Source of the DNA: an uncultured Acidobacteriota bacterium
GTDB lineage: Bacteria; Acidobacteriota; UBA6911
Reading direction: 5' to 3'
Length of the DNA stretch: 64,000 nt
Assembly: GCA_963827655.1 (NCBI GenBank)
Contig: CAWHCF010000019.1
Span: 23,298 to 87,297 of the forward strand
Shown: piece after piece, positions 43 to 62,712 of the stretch
Position numbering within the stretch: position 1 is the first letter of the stretch
How the letters are laid out: every line of letters starts with the position of its first letter
The notes under the pieces: model-generated
Told to the model about the DNA's origin: nothing
The model's database searches: none
What the model saw: only the letters and a program-made list of their open reading frames with translations
Position numbers and translations under genes: made by a program

Positions 43-1398
43 TCACGACCGGCCTGTCGGAATCGGCGCCGTGATTTCAGAAGATGAGAACTTGCGCCAC
101 AAAAGAAAAGCGATGAGCCCGGCCGCGATCAGCGCCAGACCCCCGACTACGTACTTCAAGCCGGAAGTGAAAAAAATGTAGAGCCATCCTGTCAGCGCAA
201 TCAAACTCGGCAGCGGATACCACCACATGCGAAACGAGGGAGGGTAGCCTGGCTGTGTTTTGCGAAGTATCGTCACGGCTGCAATCTGACCCAGGAACTG
301 AATCAGGATGCGAGCTGTTATGAGATAAGTGATGACGTCGACCAGCTCCAGGAAGCTGGCCATCAGAGTAATAAGTCCCAGGACAAGAACTGAAACGTGG
401 GGGAAATGCCCGGTCGGGTGCAGCTTGCCAAACACTCTGAAAAAGTACCCGTCCAGCGCGGCCGCGTATGGGATTCGAGAATACCCGACCAGTAACGCAA
501 AAATCGAGGCGAAGGCCGTCCACACGATCATTACCGTAACGGCGCCGCCGGCCCAGGGTCCATAGATGCGCTCCATGAAATCCGATGCGATGTATTTCGA
601 TTGCATGGCCTCGCGCCAGGGGATTACGCCGATGAAAGAGAGGTTCATCGTGGCATAAATGAGAGCTACTGCGATTACCGACAGGATGATTGCTTTCGGT
701 ATCACCCGCGCGGGGTTCTTTACTTCATCCCCGATGTAGCAAACGTCGTAGTAGCCGAGAAAGTCGTACATGGCAATCAGCATCGCGCCGCCCAGACCCA
801 CAAAAAAGCTCTGATTCAAGCTGAACGCGCCCGCGGGAAAGTCGAAAGCCCGGCCGGCATCAAAATGGAGCAGGCCCGACGCGATTATCCAGGTCACGGT
901 GACGATCATTCCCAACCAAAGAGTGACAGTGGCCCGCGCGATAAAGTTTATTCGCCGATAAAGCAGAAGCGTGGCGAGAATCGCCACGGTGGCGGCCACC
1001 CATTTGCCTTGCGCGGGACTCATCGACTTCCAAAAGTAGTTCACGTACATGGAAATCCCAATCGTGCCGGAAGCCAATTCGAGGGGCCCGCTCAGTATGA
1101 ATTGCCATATGAAGAGAAAAGGCATGGCCTTTCCGAAACGAAATCGCTCGTACGCCTTTTTCAAATACAGGTAGGTCCCGCCGGATCCCGGCATCGACGA
1201 AGAAAGCTCGGCCCACACCATGCCGTCGCTCATCGCAATAAGAACACCGACCAGCCAGCCCAGCATGCATTGTGGTCCTCCCATCGTCCCGATTATGATC
1301 GGAATAGTGATGAACGGTCCGATACCGACCATATTGGACATGTTGAGAGCGCTCGCATGGAGCAGCCCAAATCTCCGTTCAAGGCGGGGAGCTTCCAT
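43..1398 (-). CDS. APC-family amino acid permease
   Basis: 451 aa, many TM segments, N-terminal 'NMVGIGPF' and 'GSGGTYLYL' APC motifs. Confidence 0.88.
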   Translation of the reverse strand: MEAPRLERRFGLLHASALNMSNMVGIGPFITIPIIIGTMGGPQCMLGWLVGVLIAMSDGMVWAELSSSMPGSGGTYLYLKKAYERFRFGKAMPFLFIWQFILSGPLELASGTIGISMYVNYFWKSMSPAQGKWVAATVAILATLLLYRRINFIARATVTLWLGMIVTVTWIIASGLLHFDAGRAFDFPAGAFSLNQSFFVGLGGAMLIAMYDFLGYYDVCYIGDEVKNPARVIPKAIILSVIAVALIYATMNLSFIGVIPWREAMQSKYIASDFMERIYGPWAGGAVTVMIVWTAFASIFALLVGYSRIPYAAALDGYFFRVFGKLHPTGHFPHVSVLVLGLITLMASFLELVDVITYLITARILIQFLGQIAAVTILRKTQPGYPPSFRMWWYPLPSLIALTGWLYIFFTSGLKYVVGGLALIAAGLIAFLLWRKFSSSEITAPIPTGRS

Positions 1399-1476
1399 AT
1401 TGGTTTCTTCGGGTCTCAGCGTTCTGGTGATTGGTTTAAGCTCTGGCGCAGGCGTCGTCGCGTCACCGTCGTTCGA

Positions 1477-1893
1477 TCAGCTTGACTTGACGCGCCGCAT
1501 AGCCACGATCTGGCCCCGCCCGAAATCACGAAACCGGTCAAGTTTCTGGGCAATGGAGTGCGGAACCTCGGCCGACTCCACGAAACCCATAGGACGGAAA
1601 TAGTTCGGCATGTCGGTCGTAATCCAGACTTCGTTCGGAGCCCTCGAGATCAATTCATCAACGATCAGCGTCCCGATTCCCTGGTTGCGCCGGTCATGGA
1701 GCACACCGACGCAGCCGAGTTCGGTAGCGTCGGGATAGGGCTTGAGGCGTCCGAATCCCACCATGACGCCTGCATCTTCGACGATCACAAACTGACCAGG
1801 CTCCAGGTTCTCGTAATCGAGGTGAAATTCACCGATCATCCGGACGATGGCCGGCATGTCTCGGTTGGTTGCGTTTCGAACTGTCAGGGACAT
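1477..1893 (-). CDS. GNAT N-acetyltransferase (ArgA-like)
   Basis: 138 aa; acetyl-CoA motif 'ELGCVGVLHDRRNQGIG'. Confidence 0.8.
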   Translation of the reverse strand: MSLTVRNATNRDMPAIVRMIGEFHLDYENLEPGQFVIVEDAGVMVGFGRLKPYPDATELGCVGVLHDRRNQGIGTLIVDELISRAPNEVWITTDMPNYFRPMGFVESAEVPHSIAQKLDRFRDFGRGQIVAMRRVKSS

Positions 1894-1898
1894 ATTAG

Positions 1899-3089
1899 TT
1901 AGACGGCGCTCGCTTGCAGCGCTGAGAAATCGGCCAGGATTGTTTCGCGCTCCCCGCGGTCTACCGCGGCCCGGACCAGCCCGGCAACCTCGAAGACGCT
2001 CTCTGCCTGATCAACCTGCTCGAGGCGGGCCATCGTTTCCGGATGTCTGGGCACAAACATGGTGCAGCAATCCTGGTCCGGCAGAATGCTGATCTCGTAG
2101 GTCCCGATGGCGCGCGCTACTCGTATTATTTCTTCCTTGTCGTCTCCAATGAGCGGCCGAAAAATGGGAATGCTTGCCGCGGCCGACACCGCTCGCAGGT
2201 TATTGAGCGTTTGGCTGGCGACCTGTCCCAGGCTGTCGCCGGTCACCAGGGCAGCGGCTTTTTCCTTTGCCGCAATGACTTCGGCAATCCGCACCATGAA
2301 GCGGCGGTAAAGTACCACCCGCAGAGAGGGCGGAGCAAAGGCGACTATTTCTCTCTGGAGTTCGGCAAAGGGAACCATGTAAAGCCGCGACTCGAGCTGA
2401 TATCGCGAAAGAATCTGGATTATTCGACGGACCTTCTCCTGCGATTCGGCCGTGGTATGAGGAAAACTATGAAAATGCACATACATCATCTGGCAGCCAC
2501 GGCGCATGAGACGGTAAGCCGCCACTGGAGAGTCGATGCCTCCGGAAAGGAGACACATCACTCGACCGCCGCTGCGTGCCGGAAGTCCGCCGCCGCCGGC
2601 AATTTTTTCGAAGTACAGGTAGGCATGTTGGCCCACGAGCTCCACGTAGCAGGTTAGTTCCGGGTCATTCAATCGAACGGGAACGCCTGTAAGGTCGTGA
2701 ATGAAGGCGCCCAACTCCTGGTTCAATTGCTGCGAGTTCATCGGAAAATCTTTCGTTCCCCGGCGCGCTTCGATCTTGAAGGAGAGGAAGTTTCTTCCTT
2801 CCAACAGACGGAAGAGGGCCGAGCGGATTGAATCGAGATCGGCCGGAACCTGCCAGGCAAAAGCAAAGTTCGCTATTCCAAACGCGGTCTTGATCCGCTT
2901 CTCAATCTCGGAGACCGGCGAATCTTGGCCCAGACTTACGAACATCCGGCCGGCAAAGCGTTGGATCCCTTCGTGCGCGAGATCGCGCAGGAGAGCCTCC
3001 AGGTGCAGTTTCAGGCGATTCTCGAACCATCCTCGATTATTTTTCTTGAGGTTGATCTCATGGTAATGTATGAGAACAAATCGCTTCAT
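1899..3089 (-). CDS. thiI: tRNA 4-thiouridine synthase ThiI (short form, no rhodanese domain)
   Basis: 'HYHEINLK' N-terminus, THUMP region, PP-loop 'LLSGGIDSPVA', 'GDSLGQVASQT', 'DCC'; start moved to ATG at 3089. Confidence 0.93.
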   Translation of the reverse strand: MKRFVLIHYHEINLKKNNRGWFENRLKLHLEALLRDLAHEGIQRFAGRMFVSLGQDSPVSEIEKRIKTAFGIANFAFAWQVPADLDSIRSALFRLLEGRNFLSFKIEARRGTKDFPMNSQQLNQELGAFIHDLTGVPVRLNDPELTCYVELVGQHAYLYFEKIAGGGGLPARSGGRVMCLLSGGIDSPVAAYRLMRRGCQMMYVHFHSFPHTTAESQEKVRRIIQILSRYQLESRLYMVPFAELQREIVAFAPPSLRVVLYRRFMVRIAEVIAAKEKAAALVTGDSLGQVASQTLNNLRAVSAAASIPIFRPLIGDDKEEIIRVARAIGTYEISILPDQDCCTMFVPRHPETMARLEQVDQAESVFEVAGLVRAAVDRGERETILADFSALQASAV

Positions 3090-57986: not shown

Positions 57987-58238
57987 ATGAAAATGAATAC
58001 CAAATCCAGCATAACTCTGCCAGCGGCCGAGGTTCGCGTCGTCGAGCGCCTTCAGAAGAAACTACGCGCACGGACCAAGGTGGAGGTCATCCGCCGGGCA
58101 CTCCGTCTCCTTCAGGAAACAAGCGATCGGGCTGAGCTTCGTCGCGCGTTCCGGGAAGCATCGGTGGCATGCCGTAAGGTTACCCTGAAGGAAATTGAAG
58201 AACTCGATGCTCTCACCTCCGAAGGACTCAACGAATGA
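57987..58238 (+). CDS. Putative ribbon-helix-helix antitoxin
   Basis: 'KSSITLP', 'TKVEVIRRAL'; ATGA overlap with MazF gene. Confidence 0.78.
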   Translation: MKMNTKSSITLPAAEVRVVERLQKKLRARTKVEVIRRALRLLQETSDRAELRRAFREASVACRKVTLKEIEELDALTSEGLNE

Positions 58239-58576
58239 CCGGCCGCCATGGCCATCTTTATCTGGCCGATCTCAATCCACGCTTCGGAACCGAGCCGGGG
58301 AAGCTACGACCAGTAGTTGTCATTCAATCGGACCTCCTCAACCAGGCTGGTCATCCCTCAACCTGGATTGTGCCTTGTACTACGCGCCAGGTCGGCGATA
58401 ATCTTCTCCGCGTTGTCCTTCCCGCCGGTTCCGCCGGAAATCGCCAGGACTGCGAGATCATGATCGATCAGAGTCGCGCGATTGACAATCGACGTATCAA
58501 GCGACTTTTAGGCCCTCTTCCTTCCTCACTCCTCCGCGAGGTGAAAGAAAAACTGCGCCTGCTCGGTGATCTGTGA
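58235..58576 (+). CDS. mazF: PemK/MazF-family toxin
   Basis: 'ADLNP..GTEPGKLRPVVVIQ', 'DQSRAIDNRR'. Confidence 0.9.
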   Translation: MTGRHGHLYLADLNPRFGTEPGKLRPVVVIQSDLLNQAGHPSTWIVPCTTRQVGDNLLRVVLPAGSAGNRQDCEIMIDQSRAIDNRRIKRLLGPLPSSLLREVKEKLRLLGDL

Positions 58577-58640: not shown

Positions 58641-58706
<66 letters not shown>

Positions 58707-59358
58707 TATGTTGCCTCCCATCCGGCAAAACTCTGCCACGGCGTGACATTTTCGGCAAACATAAGCGTTGTATGAAGTTCTGGGATGCGGGTAGTCGACT
58801 CCGCGTCCCAAGGCGTCCACTCGTTTCTCGTCGTTGTGGAGTTAGGGTGGGCACAAAATTGGGCACAGTGCCGCGACAATGAAGCCCGAACCTAGAACCG
58901 GCGAAGAGCTCGAGGCCGCCGGCTACCAATTCGACGGCCTGAAGACCAACGAAGGCCTGCCCTGCCGGCCAAATGCCGTGGCTGCGGCGCCGATGAGAGT
59001 TTACAATCATTATCGATCCTCCGGAACGAGAGTCTCATCGTGACGACCCGTTTAGTTTGCGATTCACGATTTTTAAATGAATTCAGGCCGCTGAGCGTTG
59101 CAAACATCGGGTCTGTTTCGTCGCAAAGCTGTTTGGTTAAATAGTCAGGGTTCAGGGGCCCGCTCAAAATGCTTGGTTGCTGGTACACAATTTGTCCGGC
59201 CGTTGAGCAACCAGTCCAGCCGTCTCCTCGGTGCTTCTGCTATCTACGGTTGTCCGCCTCTATGACCTTCTGGCAAAGGAACTTGTCGCCGATTTGGCGG
59301 CAAACACATACAGTGACCTAGTTTAATATACTTGAAATCTAAGGGTTTATGTCAACCT

Positions 59359-59484
59359 TTCTACAATACGCGCCGCAGCCATTCCTATCTCGGCTTCAGC
59401 TCACCGGTAGAATAAGAAAGGATCTATGCCAGTCTACCAATCGCAGCATAACCAGGGTGCTGCCACTTATCCTGGGGAGGCCCA
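59359..59484 (+). mobile_element. IS3-family 3' remnant
   Basis: 'FYNTRRSHSYLGFSSPVE' followed by a right end '...cacttatcctggggaggccCA'. Confidence 0.7.
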
Positions 59485-59603
59485 GTTCGGCATATCTATT
59501 CTCTGGGCGGAAGAAGTGCCATGCGCGATGGAAGGAGCACCTCGAAGTTCACCTCGAGTTGATTCACTGCTATTACAATCCTGCTTCATACTGCCTCACC
59601 TCA

Positions 59604-61694
59604 CTATGTGTTTGATAATCCAAAGGTTAATTGTCTGACGTCCTGTCCCGCAAGGGTTCTCCGATCCTGTCTCGTCGCTTTGATGCGTTCCCGCGCCGTC
59701 GGCTGATCCAGATCGCTGCGCCGAAAGACCCAGGGACCAATACCAAGTGGATGGAGCGATGGCACGTCTCGTCGCTCGGCAGCACGCCGCAGCGTTTTGG
59801 GCGTCACATTCAAGTATGATGCCGCTTCCCCCAGGTTCATCCAGCCTTCCGACTTCCGCCTCTCCTCGGAGTAGACTGGGATTCCATGATAGTTCCGCAG
59901 CGACACCACGCGTTCTTGTGTCCACCGATTGCCGGGGCCGGTTCGAAGGCCATTCCGATTAAGGAACGCGGCAATCCAGTCATCCCTGCATATCGCAGCG
60001 AGAACCCTCACCACATTGATCGTCTCAACGGGTGTGTCGCTGCTGGTCTGGCCGCGGCGCCGGCGGCGGATGCGGAGTTCGGTGTGCGTGTCTCCTTTCC
60101 AATGGAGGACCAGAACAATCTCGCCTTCATCCGAATTCACGTCCACGACGACTTCCTCGATGAGTGTTCGCACGATGCGTTTCTTCAGCCTGGCGTCGGT
60201 CCTCGAATCTTTCCAGACTGACTCCAAGTCCGCGCTCAAATCCTGCAACTGTTCCGGGCTAGGCGGCGTGATCTGGCCACGCCGGTGCTCGACCTCTTCG
60301 ATCCGGTTCTCCATCTCGCGCACTTTGGCGAGCCCGGTATTCCAACGCCTCTCGAGTTCCTCTGCAACCAGACGATTCCCGGGATCCGCTAGATCGTACT
60401 GCCGTCGGGCTCGTTCTGCTTCGTACCGCGCTGCCCGCAGTTCCAAGCCCAACGCGCGCAATACCTCGTCCTGCTTTTCCGTTTTCTGCTGAGCCGCTCG
60501 AAGTGCGGCCTCCACCGCAGCGGGCTCGACAACCCGCAGTACTTCGCGAGCGATGGCCTCGTCAACCGCGGTGCCACCGAAAGAAATGCATTTGGGTTCA
60601 CCTTGGTCGAACGTTCCGCGCCGACACTGATACCTCACCGCGTCGTGGTGTTGTCCCGTATAGGTCACCATCAGCTTCCGGCCGCACTTTCGGCAGCGCA
60701 GGAGGCCGGCCAGCAGCGCCGGACCCATCTTCGGAGCACCCGGCGTGGAGGCGTACCAAGTCTGAGAGTTCTTGGTGATCATGTGACTGACCTGTTCAAA
60801 TTGGTCCCAGGTAATGTAACCTTCATATCGATCCGGGATCAACACAGACCAGTCTTTCATGGGTTTTCGCACAGCCACCTTTTTGAGCCGGCCATCGCGA
60901 ATAGCCGTCACGACGGCGGATCTGCCATACCTGTAGGCACCCGCATAAATCGGGTCTTTCAGAATGTTCAGGACGGAAGAGTAGGAGGGACGTTTCCATA
61001 CCGTCTCCGTTGCTCCTGCCGTGTGGTGGATTACTGGTAAGTCCAGCCCTTGTTCAACAAACCACAGCATCGTTTGTCGCACTGTCCCAAGCTCGAGAAA
61101 CTCCCTAAACACCAAACGGATGGCTTCCTGCACGCGCAGGTCCGGGTCCTTCTCCAGCCGCTGATCCGGGGTCTTGACGTAGCCGATCGGCGCTGCAACC
61201 ACCAGTTCGCCGCGCGATGCCTTTTGCCGGCGCGCTTCCTGGGACCTCTGTCTCAACAGGTCGAGTTCGTATTCGTTCAAACTCCCTTTCAGTCCAAGCA
61301 GGAGGCGGTCGTTGCTGTTTCTTGAGTCATAAACCACCTCCTGGTCCAACAGGAGCGTGTCCACCATCCGACAGACCTCGATCAGCTGCTGCCAGTCCTT
61401 GCTGTTGCGGGCAAAGCGCGAAACCTCTCGTGCCGCCACCACGCCTACTCGTCCGAGGCAGACTTCGGCAACCATTCTCTGAAATCCGCTCCGCTCCACG
61501 CCGCCTGATGCCGAGCGGCCCAGATCCTCATCGATGACGTTAACCTCCTGCCATCCGAGATCTCGAATCCGTTGTTTCATCGCGTACTGCAGACGCCGGC
61601 TCTCCTCGTTGTGGGTTACCTGAAACGTTGATGACTGGCGAACGTACAACACTGCATTCCGATCCAAGTGATGTGTCTTGATTTTTTCATTCAT
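59604..61694 (-). CDS. Large serine recombinase with zinc ribbon, coiled coil and C-terminal HTH
   Basis: 'YVRQS' (Ser21), 'EVSRFAR', 'CRKCG...YQC...KC', C-terminal 'MNLGEAASYLNVTPKTLRR'. Confidence 0.95.
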   Translation of the reverse strand: MNEKIKTHHLDRNAVLYVRQSSTFQVTHNEESRRLQYAMKQRIRDLGWQEVNVIDEDLGRSASGGVERSGFQRMVAEVCLGRVGVVAAREVSRFARNSKDWQQLIEVCRMVDTLLLDQEVVYDSRNSNDRLLLGLKGSLNEYELDLLRQRSQEARRQKASRGELVVAAPIGYVKTPDQRLEKDPDLRVQEAIRLVFREFLELGTVRQTMLWFVEQGLDLPVIHHTAGATETVWKRPSYSSVLNILKDPIYAGAYRYGRSAVVTAIRDGRLKKVAVRKPMKDWSVLIPDRYEGYITWDQFEQVSHMITKNSQTWYASTPGAPKMGPALLAGLLRCRKCGRKLMVTYTGQHHDAVRYQCRRGTFDQGEPKCISFGGTAVDEAIAREVLRVVEPAAVEAALRAAQQKTEKQDEVLRALGLELRAARYEAERARRQYDLADPGNRLVAEELERRWNTGLAKVREMENRIEEVEHRRGQITPPSPEQLQDLSADLESVWKDSRTDARLKKRIVRTLIEEVVVDVNSDEGEIVLVLHWKGDTHTELRIRRRRRGQTSSDTPVETINVVRVLAAICRDDWIAAFLNRNGLRTGPGNRWTQERVVSLRNYHGIPVYSEERRKSEGWMNLGEAASYLNVTPKTLRRAAERRDVPSLHPLGIGPWVFRRSDLDQPTARERIKATRQDRRTLAGQDVRQLTFGLSNT

Positions 61695-61872
61695 TGCTCG
61701 ACCCTCCTTGTTTCTGATCCCCCGCGTTTTGATCCAGTCGATCCCGAAACATCCGAGCGAGGTCCTGCAACACCTTTTCTCGGGTCGTCTCGGGGAGGGT
61801 CTTCCAGTCGGGATCTTCGAGGGGGGGGTGATACAACTCCAGCTGCTTGAGTCGGCGAAACGGTCTGGGCAT
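61687..61872 (-). CDS. Small accessory protein of the recombinase element (61 aa)
   Basis: SD AAGGAGGT before ATG 61872; 'QLELYHPP...PDWKTLPETTREKVLQDLARMF'; stop overlaps recombinase 5' end. Confidence 0.65.
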   Translation of the reverse strand: MPRPFRRLKQLELYHPPLEDPDWKTLPETTREKVLQDLARMFRDRLDQNAGDQKQGGSSNE

Positions 61873-62214
61873 GGGCACCTCCTTGAACTGCCTCAAGTTG
61901 ATGCCCGCCTTGTACCACGTCGGAATCGTCCGTGCCGAGAGCACGATCGAGAAGCTGACGCAGCTGCCTCAAAGCCTCCGCGTCGACAAGAGCAGTCTGG
62001 CTCAACGTCATCGTTGAGCAGACGGCACTGTCTAGCATCCAAACGGGAATGTCGAAGCCTCTACGTCCTACGTCGCTGTGAGGATCACACCTGGCAACTA
62101 AGCCGTTTTTCCAGCGCTGTTCCAGACGGACTGGGATCGATTGCCTGTAGAGGGGATGCCAGGGATAGTGAACTTCCCGAAGCTCAGTCTTGTGTGTCTT
62201 GTGTTGATGGGTTG
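61691..62214 (-). CDS. Start-less ORF (DUF5372/Y4bD-like) completed only in the excised circle
   Basis: Open frame 'TTHQHKTHKTELREVHYPWHPLY...IPVWMLD...' from the element end; no in-frame ATG/GTG/TTG before 62038; stop overlaps recombinase ATG. Confidence 0.7.
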
Positions 62215-62712
62215 TACAACTTCGTCAGGCCTCACATGGCGCTGAAGTTCGGACTCGAGGTCCGGACACCGGCCATGCAGGCGGGATTGAGCACCAGGCG
62301 GCTGACGTTCCGGGAGATCTTCTCCTCGACCTGCATTTTTTGGCGCTGCGAAATGTCACTCTCGTGTTCTTCGACTCCGCCTTGTTGGTCGATGTGGACC
62401 ATTCGCGTCTTTCTATGGCGGCGTAGCAACACTGGATGGCGGAAGCACCGCAGCGTTTCTCGCCCGTCTCGCAGACGCGTACCCCGCTTTTTCTACCGGT
62501 ACGATGAGGCGCCGCTCTTGATCGTGAACAGCAGCGTATCAATTTCGCCGGACGATCGGTCGCATCTCGACCTTCTGGTATCGCGAATCGGCGGCATGCG
62601 ACGCCGGCGCGAGTTTTTTTCAATATTGGCCAGTTCGCGTGACGCTTTCGAAGCTGGATCGACATCGCTCATGCAGACGAGCTCTTTGCGCGACTTCGGG
62701 GGCGCAAAAAAT

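Follow-up and report, generated by a model that had tools for sequence, protein, structure and literature searches.

A large serine recombinase mini-element carries an accessory gene split between its two ends

Junction-dependent genes in known mobile elements

Junction-dependent expression by promoter assembly and the partition of a gene by integration are both already known among mobile elements. In circles of the insertion sequences (IS) IS911, IS2, IS30 and IS110, a junction promoter is formed from -35 and -10 boxes that come from both ends, and a TnpX junction promoter is reportedly assembled when Tn4451 circularises. In this way the excised form alone turns on its recombination genes. 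Here we investigated a 64,000-nucleotide stretch of DNA (the window) from an uncultured Acidobacteriota bacterium of the lineage UBA6911 (GenBank assembly GCA_963827655.1, contig CAWHCF010000019.1, positions 23,298 to 87,297 of the forward strand), which contains a 2641-bp mini-element encoding a large serine recombinase (LSR). Like the IS circles, and like Tn4451 and Tn4453 with TnpX, which is also an LSR, this element would unite signals from its two ends in a circle made by its own recombinase. Those systems assemble a promoter, whereas the element in the window separates the ribosome-binding site, the start codon and the first five codons of an accessory gene, here named orfA, from the rest of that gene.

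Two further groups of systems were compared with the window element. The end promoters Pcirc of ICEclc and P3'end of ICEKp1 are described as driving the integrase at the opposite end only after circularisation (PMC13023037). As presented in that source, they differ from our element in that the control is transcriptional, the enzyme is a tyrosine integrase, the elements measure ~100 kb and the gene is intact in both states. In the 'suicidal' integrases of the SSV1 type, carried by archaeal viruses and plasmids, the attachment site attP lies in the gene, which is whole only in the free circle, and the review describes this partition as a directionality control built into the module (PMC8371274). 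By that account the split gene is the tyrosine recombinase itself, whereas in the window the LSR gene is whole and that of a small predicted partner is split between codons 5 and 6.

Serine integrases also have recombination directionality factors, such as phiC31 gp3, Bxb1 gp47 and SPbeta SprB/YotN. These are small proteins encoded by the element, without sequence likeness from one system to the next, which bind the integrase and shift the direction of its reaction; for OrfA, binding to the LSR is predicted only. The known factors are complete genes under transcriptional control, in contrast to orfA, which is split by integration. Our full-text search of the literature, which covered the main articles, found no description of a split-start arrangement in serine-recombinase elements. 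The same kind of search found no mention of DUF5372, a family discussed below, and returned only unrelated matches for y4bA, y4bD, y4pK and y4pH. In the parts of Durrant et al. 2022 (PMC10083194) that the search covered, no IS-targeting LSRs are mentioned, and the supplementary target-gene tables of that paper might list them. Two points are new: the coding sequence split here, at its fifth codon, belongs to a predicted partner of the recombinase and not to the recombinase itself, nor is a promoter divided, and the layout is general among serine-recombinase mini-elements of a large group that has no name yet.

Anatomy, boundaries and conservation of the split gene

Positions 59574-62214 of the window and a repeated core of 5 bp make up the mini-element, which has the gene order of its group, orfA-(orfB)-LSR (Table 1). 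The core is the pentamer TTGTA (TACAA on the plus strand), and its two copies are spaced 2641 bp apart. At the right end, the LSR stop codon is followed by 14 nt that contain the Shine-Dalgarno (SD)-like box GAGGTG, then by an ATG at 59589-59587 and by four codons plus one base that run to 59574; the first five codons read MKQDC. At the left end, a frame is open from 62224 down to a TGA that overlaps the ATG of the LSR gene (61694-61691). The first ATG, GTG or TTG in this frame is the ATG at 62038, which encodes the invariant Met of a PxWM pattern, and an in-frame TGA (62227-62225) lies directly beyond the left junction. The expression signals are split between the ends, with SD and start on the right and a start-less open reading frame (ORF) on the left, in frame with each other. 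Joining the ends by script gave a 2641-bp circle with a 179-codon ORF, whose TGA overlaps the LSR ATG (ATGA). The attP site lies inside a coding sequence, with its crossover between orfA codons 5 and 6, and the partitioned gene is not the recombinase. An earlier reading of the window, made from the letters and their translations (the sequence-only reading), had proposed a gene assembled only on excision and a circle that is a closed loop of genes with just 14 non-coding nt. Its coordinates and length arithmetic proved exact when recomputed, and the closed loop holds for the window element; orfB is an addition to its list of genes.

The boundaries of the insertion were read from empty sites. 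A DNA search of the same genome found three diverged copies of the flanking IS (~80% identity) without the element, in which the two flank matches overlap by exactly 5 nt. Contigs from 4/4 public soil runs join 59573 to 62215, skipping 2641 bp with five shared letters, and in these four runs the empty-site joint was deeper in coverage than the element. Contigs from other runs part from the window exactly after 62216. Altogether, 0.65-0.73 of the sampled words were present in 14 runs from 9 studies, and one of these runs may be the source sample. The empty sites in the same genome and in four runs demonstrate that the boundaries are independently fixed.

The insertion point is the C-terminal "YN" motif of an IS1-like transposase remnant, and the flanks read through as YNxxRPHxAL. 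Only ~200 bp of the interrupted IS is left in the window; an intact copy of the target type in the same genome (L006:1405-2412:-) matches PF03400 (E 3.6e-5). The crossover comprises 2 bp, with no target duplication beyond the core. The sequence common to element and target is 5 bp in the window and down to 2 bp in relatives, where reading by hand gave TA in a paralogue of the same genome (on contig C49) and GT, TG, GG or CC elsewhere. Empty sites, differing flanks and the unit-length repeat contigs described below point to mobility of the element. In one RNA-library run (X15), contigs carry the same left end on another flank, diverging exactly after the crossover TA, and the transposase flank of the window is also preceded there by the apparent left end of a related element.

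Relatives were then used to assess the conservation of the split. OrfA relatives were present in 9/401 sampled genomes of the phylum. With the LSR N-terminus as query, we found at least 596 relatives among genome contigs and at least 596 among metagenome contigs, and 80 loci from each of these two collections were kept as the comparative set. The relatives belong to Acidobacteriota, Alpha-, Beta- and Gammaproteobacteria, Planctomycetota, Verrucomicrobiota, Gemmatimonadota, Actinomycetota and Myxococcota. The LSR was intact in 51/80 genome loci, and the other 29 were dropped for a broken or cut LSR. Ten of the 51 were dropped as well, since the motif pattern found no orfA in them: five have an orfA with a variant motif and no nearby Met, two are cut by the contig start and three are apparently disrupted. 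Four of the 33 metagenome loci lacked the motif and were also dropped.

The two ends have the same layout in the relatives as in the window. In nearly all of the 51 genome loci, the right end consists of the LSR stop, an SD-like box, ATG or GTG, ~12 nt, the crossover and then unrelated flank, and the stretch from SD and start over ~12 nt to the crossover was seen in 51 genome and 33 metagenome loci. At the left ends, unrelated flank is followed by the crossover and then by conserved sequence up to the motif (YPWHP in OrfA). The paralogue on contig C49 (~353-3010) is a complete element with 68% DNA identity; its LSR stop is followed by GAGGTG, spacer and ATG AAG as in the window, and the motif again comes 25 codons on, in frame. 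The transposase that it interrupts is another one, hit at the equivalent Tyr codon (YH/YN), and only TA is common to element and target. A copy on a Cupriavidus plasmid has the same split gene layout, and a canonical DUF5372-HTH (helix-turn-helix)-LSR element (L136) has an SD and ATG AAG after the LSR stop, in frame over a 3-nt core. Four contigs of ~2.6 kb (L039, L041, L050, L054) start and stop exactly at the core, the form that a multi-copy repeat takes when it collapses in assembly. A third, partial LSR relative in the genome of the window (C45:119273-120829) is cut by the contig end.

We next joined the ends of the relatives in silico. An automatic rule that is blind to the frame took as core the longest string that occurs in both of two windows, one of 16 nt at the right end and one of 24 nt at the left, and a join was called in frame when the start codon was in frame with no stop before the motif. 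Wider-window and unrestricted core pickers often chose spurious matches, and the narrower windows were used instead. The automatic join was in frame in 36/46 genome loci and in 24/29 metagenome loci, with about one third expected by chance. In each of the ten genome misses the core was 2-4 nt long, and 9/10 were in frame once the interrupted target gene had been rebuilt by hand from the element ends; the motifs that read through the rebuilt targets were YN..R.H, IstB Walker A, IS66 TnpB GFW, IS91-like HAHCH and tyrosine-recombinase HxLRH. The one genome locus left without a frame call (L112) lies on a contig that ends at both junctions. Positional homology placed the five metagenome misses in frame as well. 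In one of them (L180), a changed crossover base at the left end creates an in-frame TGA, and this locus is probably a dead copy or a sequencing error. No out-of-frame locus was demonstrated among the 46 genome and 29 metagenome loci. A longest-ORF heuristic for the target frame on both flanks was also tried, and it was rejected for its mixed answers. As 30-50 codons separate the insertion from the transposase stop, the true frame has little length on one side and the heuristic settles on a wrong one.

The offsets between core and motif were 49, 52, 55 and 61 nt and differ by whole codons only. These differences indicate that the stretch from crossover to motif is under reading-frame constraint, although no start precedes it when the element is integrated; if this stretch is translated, the start must lie upstream of it. 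Subfamilies with differing crossover dinucleotides (TA, GT, TG, GG, CC) and end sequences all keep an in-frame start. The sequence-only reading had suggested circularising homologous elements in silico, and an in-frame SD and start across the junction turned out to be conserved under the automatic rule (36/46; 24/29). It had also named an internal start upstream of the motif as evidence to the contrary, and no conserved one was found among the 49 loci whose integrated state was examined.

In that integrated state, 37/49 loci had no start inside the element upstream of the motif: 21 had no in-frame ATG, GTG or TTG from the upstream stop to the motif, and 16 had an in-frame start only in the unrelated flank. 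The orfA of the window lacks a canonical start for 58 codons and has GTT where some relatives have GTG or TTG, codons that are not conserved among the relatives. In an alignment of 46 sequences, Y15, H18 and P19 are invariant and lie upstream of the only conserved Met, indicating that translation must begin before them. Tables derived from RefSeq show no gene under the orfA match in 22/25 listed plasmid hits (81 records had a match), with the limit that the PLSDB gene table omits pseudogenes. One family member (L113) lies on plasmid pRL12 of Rhizobium johnstonii 3841 (NC_008378.1 699998-707189), a laboratory strain that has been studied well. On pRL12 only orfB (59 aa) and the recombinase are called, with nothing over orfA and one locus-tag number skipped.

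The second small gene, orfB, overlaps the 3' half of orfA and is read in the +1 frame. It is well conserved and has a start and a strong AAGGAGGT box of its own, and its stop overlaps the LSR start (ATGAATGA). An alignment of 18 sequences showed that Q10, L13, W23 and L26 are conserved, and a profile search found no Pfam family for it. Between the orfA stop and the called LSR start there is an overlap of 4 nt in 29/46 loci and of 1 nt in 4/46, so the 179-aa frame and ATGA overlap first noted in the window are also conserved in relatives (33/46 with an overlap of 4 or 1 nt). Over the last 58 codons of orfB, the orfA frame was free of stops in 23/26 loci against 7.0 expected from synonymous-codon shuffles, a contrast that the relatedness of the loci inflates; the third frame was open over orfB in 3/26 loci. 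Translational coupling from orfA to the LSR is plausible. In the part of the tail that orfB and orfA have in common (61809-61828, minus strand), the four soil runs differ from the window, with a base added behind 61809 and a base missing at 61821, beside eight consecutive C. This compensated frameshift alters four orfB residues (LEDP versus SKIP). The soil-run version fits the K-x-P-x-W pattern of the paralogue better, and the window sequence may therefore contain an assembly error or a variant here.

The targets of the relatives were read by hand as motifs from the element ends, and the target family of the window was the only one tested by profile, on the intact copy. The Tyr of YN/YH in DDE transposases is the site for the window element, the C49 paralogue, L026, L027, L049, L059 and most loci of the TTGTA type. 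Other elements sit in what we take, from motif recognition, to be the Walker A Thr/Ser of IstB (L030, L097, L099), the GFW of IS66 TnpB (L063, L079), the HAHCH region of an IS91-like protein (L031), the HxLRH box of a tyrosine recombinase (L107) and the KGxVE region of an IstA-like protein (L136). The elements lie in either orientation with respect to their targets, and this speaks against read-through translation from the interrupted gene. By these motifs, the element group seems to specialise in the transposition genes of other mobile elements.

Table 1. Positions of the mini-element and its target in the window
Feature	Positions	Strand	Details
Target, upstream half	59487..59573	+	C-terminal part of IS1-like DDE transposase remnant, ends ...CYY
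Core copy, right end	59574..59578	-	TTGTA on minus strand; crossover dinucleotide TA = 59575-59574
Right end	59574..59603	-	P arm of presumed attP; SD-like box, ATG and first five orfA codons
LSR gene	59604..61694	-	696 aa, 2091 nt including stop; Pfam and NCBIfam
orfB	61687..61872	-	61 aa; own AAGGAGGT box; +1 frame within orfA
orfA body, start-less	61691..62214	-	~95-aa conserved domain (YPWHP ... PxWM ... helix), then low-complexity tail
Core copy, left end	62215..62219	-	Crossover dinucleotide TA = 62216-62215
Target, downstream half	62220..62328	+	(N)FVRPHMALKFG..., conserved transposase motif YNxxRPHxAL

Two further features are found no more than ~1 kb away from the IS remnant in which the element sits. 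These are an ORF for a PemK/MazF-like toxin (PF02452, E 6e-23) at 58235-58576 on the plus strand and a tRNA-Ser(CGA) gene at 58645-58736 on the minus strand. A search for sigma-70-like promoters at 59300-62500 found 0 against 0.9 expected.

The recombinase and the OrfA protein

The recombinase has the resolvase, recombinase and zinc-ribbon domains of an LSR in order (PF00239, E 1.5e-19; PF07508, E 2.3e-16; PF13408, E 1.7e-6). The XisF model also matched it with E 1.2e-30, but at 106.9 bits against a cut-off of 375. Among solved structures, its closest relative is the SPbeta integrase YokA (E 3.5e-8); a fusion of YokA with YotN has been solved as well (9dxd). At its C-terminus (residues 618-664, window 59604-59750) the LSR has an HTH_17/excisionase-like domain (PF12728, E 9.9e-8), which TIGR01764 matched with E 3.3e-4, under its cut-off. 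A second stretch resembling the helix motif of the recombinase domain precedes this domain. A C-terminus of this kind is uncommon in serine integrases and may recognise extended arms of the attachment sites.

OrfA of the window had no Pfam hit at E<=1 and no NCBIfam hit. Its invariant residues in the 46-sequence alignment are Y15, H18, P19, P55, W57 and M58, and its tail is low-complexity and unconserved. The sequence-only reading had proposed a likeness to DUF5372 (PF17342), which we take to be the Y4bD/Y4pK-type protein. This likeness is real in relatives, where 5/10 scanned proteins scored 16.7-23.8 bits with matches that begin two residues before the motif; it stays under the cut-off of 25 bits, and the window protein itself gave no hit. 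DUF5372 proteins have the same motif pattern as OrfA and the same place upstream of an LSR, canonical DUF5372 genes in the phylum also precede LSR genes, and the canonical member L136 shares the split start. Judged by these sequence features, OrfA appears to be a distant relative of DUF5372 and not a member. A complete genome in the phylum (G279:C1) has 11 DUF5372 matches, each over the cut-off, and these suggest that a related element multiplied there recently in a burst.

An AlphaFold model of OrfA, built from 46 sequences, had a predicted local distance difference test (pLDDT) score of 81.9 and showed a small four-strand barrel plus helices. A fold search against the PDB found no significant match (best E 0.33); its top hits were SH3-like barrels (PsaE, Tudor, Sac7d). 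A profile search against PDB sequences found nothing significant either. We then predicted the complex of OrfA with the LSR. The interaction prediction score from aligned errors (ipSAE) was 0.72, 0.73 and 0.72, and the best of three controls reached 0.00; the mark applied to this score was reached by 58/80 solved complexes and by 2/110 mismatched pairs. The runs agreed in at least 65% of contacts, with a partner pLDDT of at least 66. In the predicted interface, LSR residues 334-339, 384-404, 475-516 and 529-539 face OrfA residues 17-20, 48-54 and 66-91. The OrfA side is formed by the invariant WHP motif and the C-terminal helix, and the LSR side by the zinc ribbon (334-339), the coiled-coil flanks (384-404, 475-516) and an invariant HWxGGxH hairpin (529-539). 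By this model OrfA would dock on the LSR at the base of the zinc ribbon and coiled coil and on a conserved stretch specific to the family. The former is also the site at which directionality factors act in serine integrases.

Proposed mechanism, alternatives and meaning

We consider it likely that this is a cut-and-paste LSR mini-element whose split orfA is restored only in the circle, and that OrfA made from the circle steers the LSR. We infer circle formation, circle-only translation and the direction of control as follows. Integration (attP x attB) would leave the SD, the ATG and five codons at one end (attR), and the other 174 orfA codons would stay at attL, lacking a start and facing an in-frame stop in the flanking DNA. 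The two parts of orfA would be rejoined only if the LSR excised the element as a circle, or in a head-to-tail tandem. Ribosomes would then translate the rejoined gene and end on the ATGA over the LSR start. OrfA would in this way sense the topology of the element: made only from the circle, it would alter the action of the LSR and raise LSR translation by coupling. It would most likely commit a non-replicating circle to re-integration and prevent futile reversal. The candidate excision factor would be the product of orfB, which could be expressed in both states.

Several points weigh against this proposal. No circle joint was found in the contigs of the four runs, contigs being prone to drop rare forms, and no contiguous junction from LSR stop to orfA was found in 62 genome and 33 metagenome loci, where contigs would likewise miss such forms. 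RNA-library contigs (X15) cover parts of the element, yet they cannot show transcription. That OrfA would be produced from the circle is deduced from the sequence. The related loci are not independent, so their counts overstate the evidence, and the hand resolution that followed where the automatic core rule failed (10/46 and 5/29) is less objective. The complex prediction was built on our own alignments, and since solved complexes of an LSR with a directionality factor exist (9dxd), likeness to them may feed the ipSAE score. Circle-only expression would be paradoxical if OrfA were a classical factor needed for excision. Finally, the SD, the ATG and the first codons lie in the presumed recombinase-binding arms of attP, and constraint at the level of DNA could by itself conserve their sequence and spacing.

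This last point is the basis of an explanation in which the likeness of the ends reflects attachment-site DNA only, the SD and ATG serve as recombinase-binding sequence and not for translation, and orfA starts at a non-canonical or poorly conserved internal codon. The SD and ATG do lie within ~30 bp of the crossover and the first orfA codons in the other arm, which is typical attP territory. Moreover, in 12/49 loci a start codon within the element precedes the motif; most of these are GTG or TTG (Val/Leu codons) one or two codons ahead of it, and in L103 an ATG two codons past the crossover is the only clear internal start seen. We regard this explanation as quite improbable, given that the other 37 loci have no canonical start in the element and the window has none for 58 codons, that the internal GTG and TTG are unconserved and replaced by GTT in the window, and that subfamilies with different dinucleotides and ends all keep the in-frame start. 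The change of the crossover-to-motif length in whole codons likewise argues that this stretch is translated from a start upstream. If the split is real, the function of OrfA could still be secondary, with the rejoined start serving to couple ribosomes into the LSR and to give a burst of recombinase only in the circle, in the manner of the Tn4451 and IS-circle junction promoters. The conserved ATGA or 1-nt overlap (33/46), the selection that holds the orfA frame open over orfB (23/26 versus 7.0 expected) and the unconserved, low-complexity tail all suit such a role, which is compatible with a function of OrfA and does not exclude it. We nevertheless judge it unlikely that OrfA is secondary: its N-terminal domain of ~95 aa is conserved with invariant residues and folds confidently (pLDDT 81.9), its conserved residues form the predicted interface with conserved LSR residues, and orfB already gives coupling in both states.

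OrfA might instead be a classical directionality factor for attL x attR, made from a rare first circle; it would then trigger the excision of the other integrated copies in trans and block re-integration until it decays, giving a burst. The predicted docking at the base of the zinc ribbon and coiled coil, where known factors act, would suit this role, as would the multi-copy state of such elements (the paralogue, the unit-length repeat contigs and the genome with 11 DUF5372 matches). A non-replicating circle that blocks its own integration would, however, risk loss; OrfA has no sequence or fold likeness to any solved protein, and with orfB a candidate factor is already at hand while the element is integrated. 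Among the readings considered, this one appears the least probable to us, and we continue to favour a circle-made OrfA that commits the element to re-integration.

The choice of direction by serine integrases is central to their biology and to genome-writing tools, and known control is exerted by directionality factors under a regulation of their own. The system described here is compact (2.6 kb, three ORFs) and has many natural variants with different targets, and its split start accounts for the fact that a conserved ORF upstream of hundreds of recombinase genes has gone unannotated. If the proposed mechanism is true, the control would be hard-wired, with integration removing the start codon of the partner gene and excision restoring it. 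More tentatively, a widespread DUF5372-LSR superfamily (at least 8 phyla) may use a topology switch, in which the gene of a recombinase-binding subunit can be translated only from the excised circle, to set the direction of serine recombination, and may consist of hyperparasites that home to catalytic motifs in genes of other mobile elements (DDE transposases, IstA, IstB, IS66 TnpB, IS91-like and tyrosine recombinases), a possibility that we put forward without calling it probable. If this holds, the genes of other mobile elements would serve as multi-copy, horizontally travelling landing sites that are restored by precise excision.

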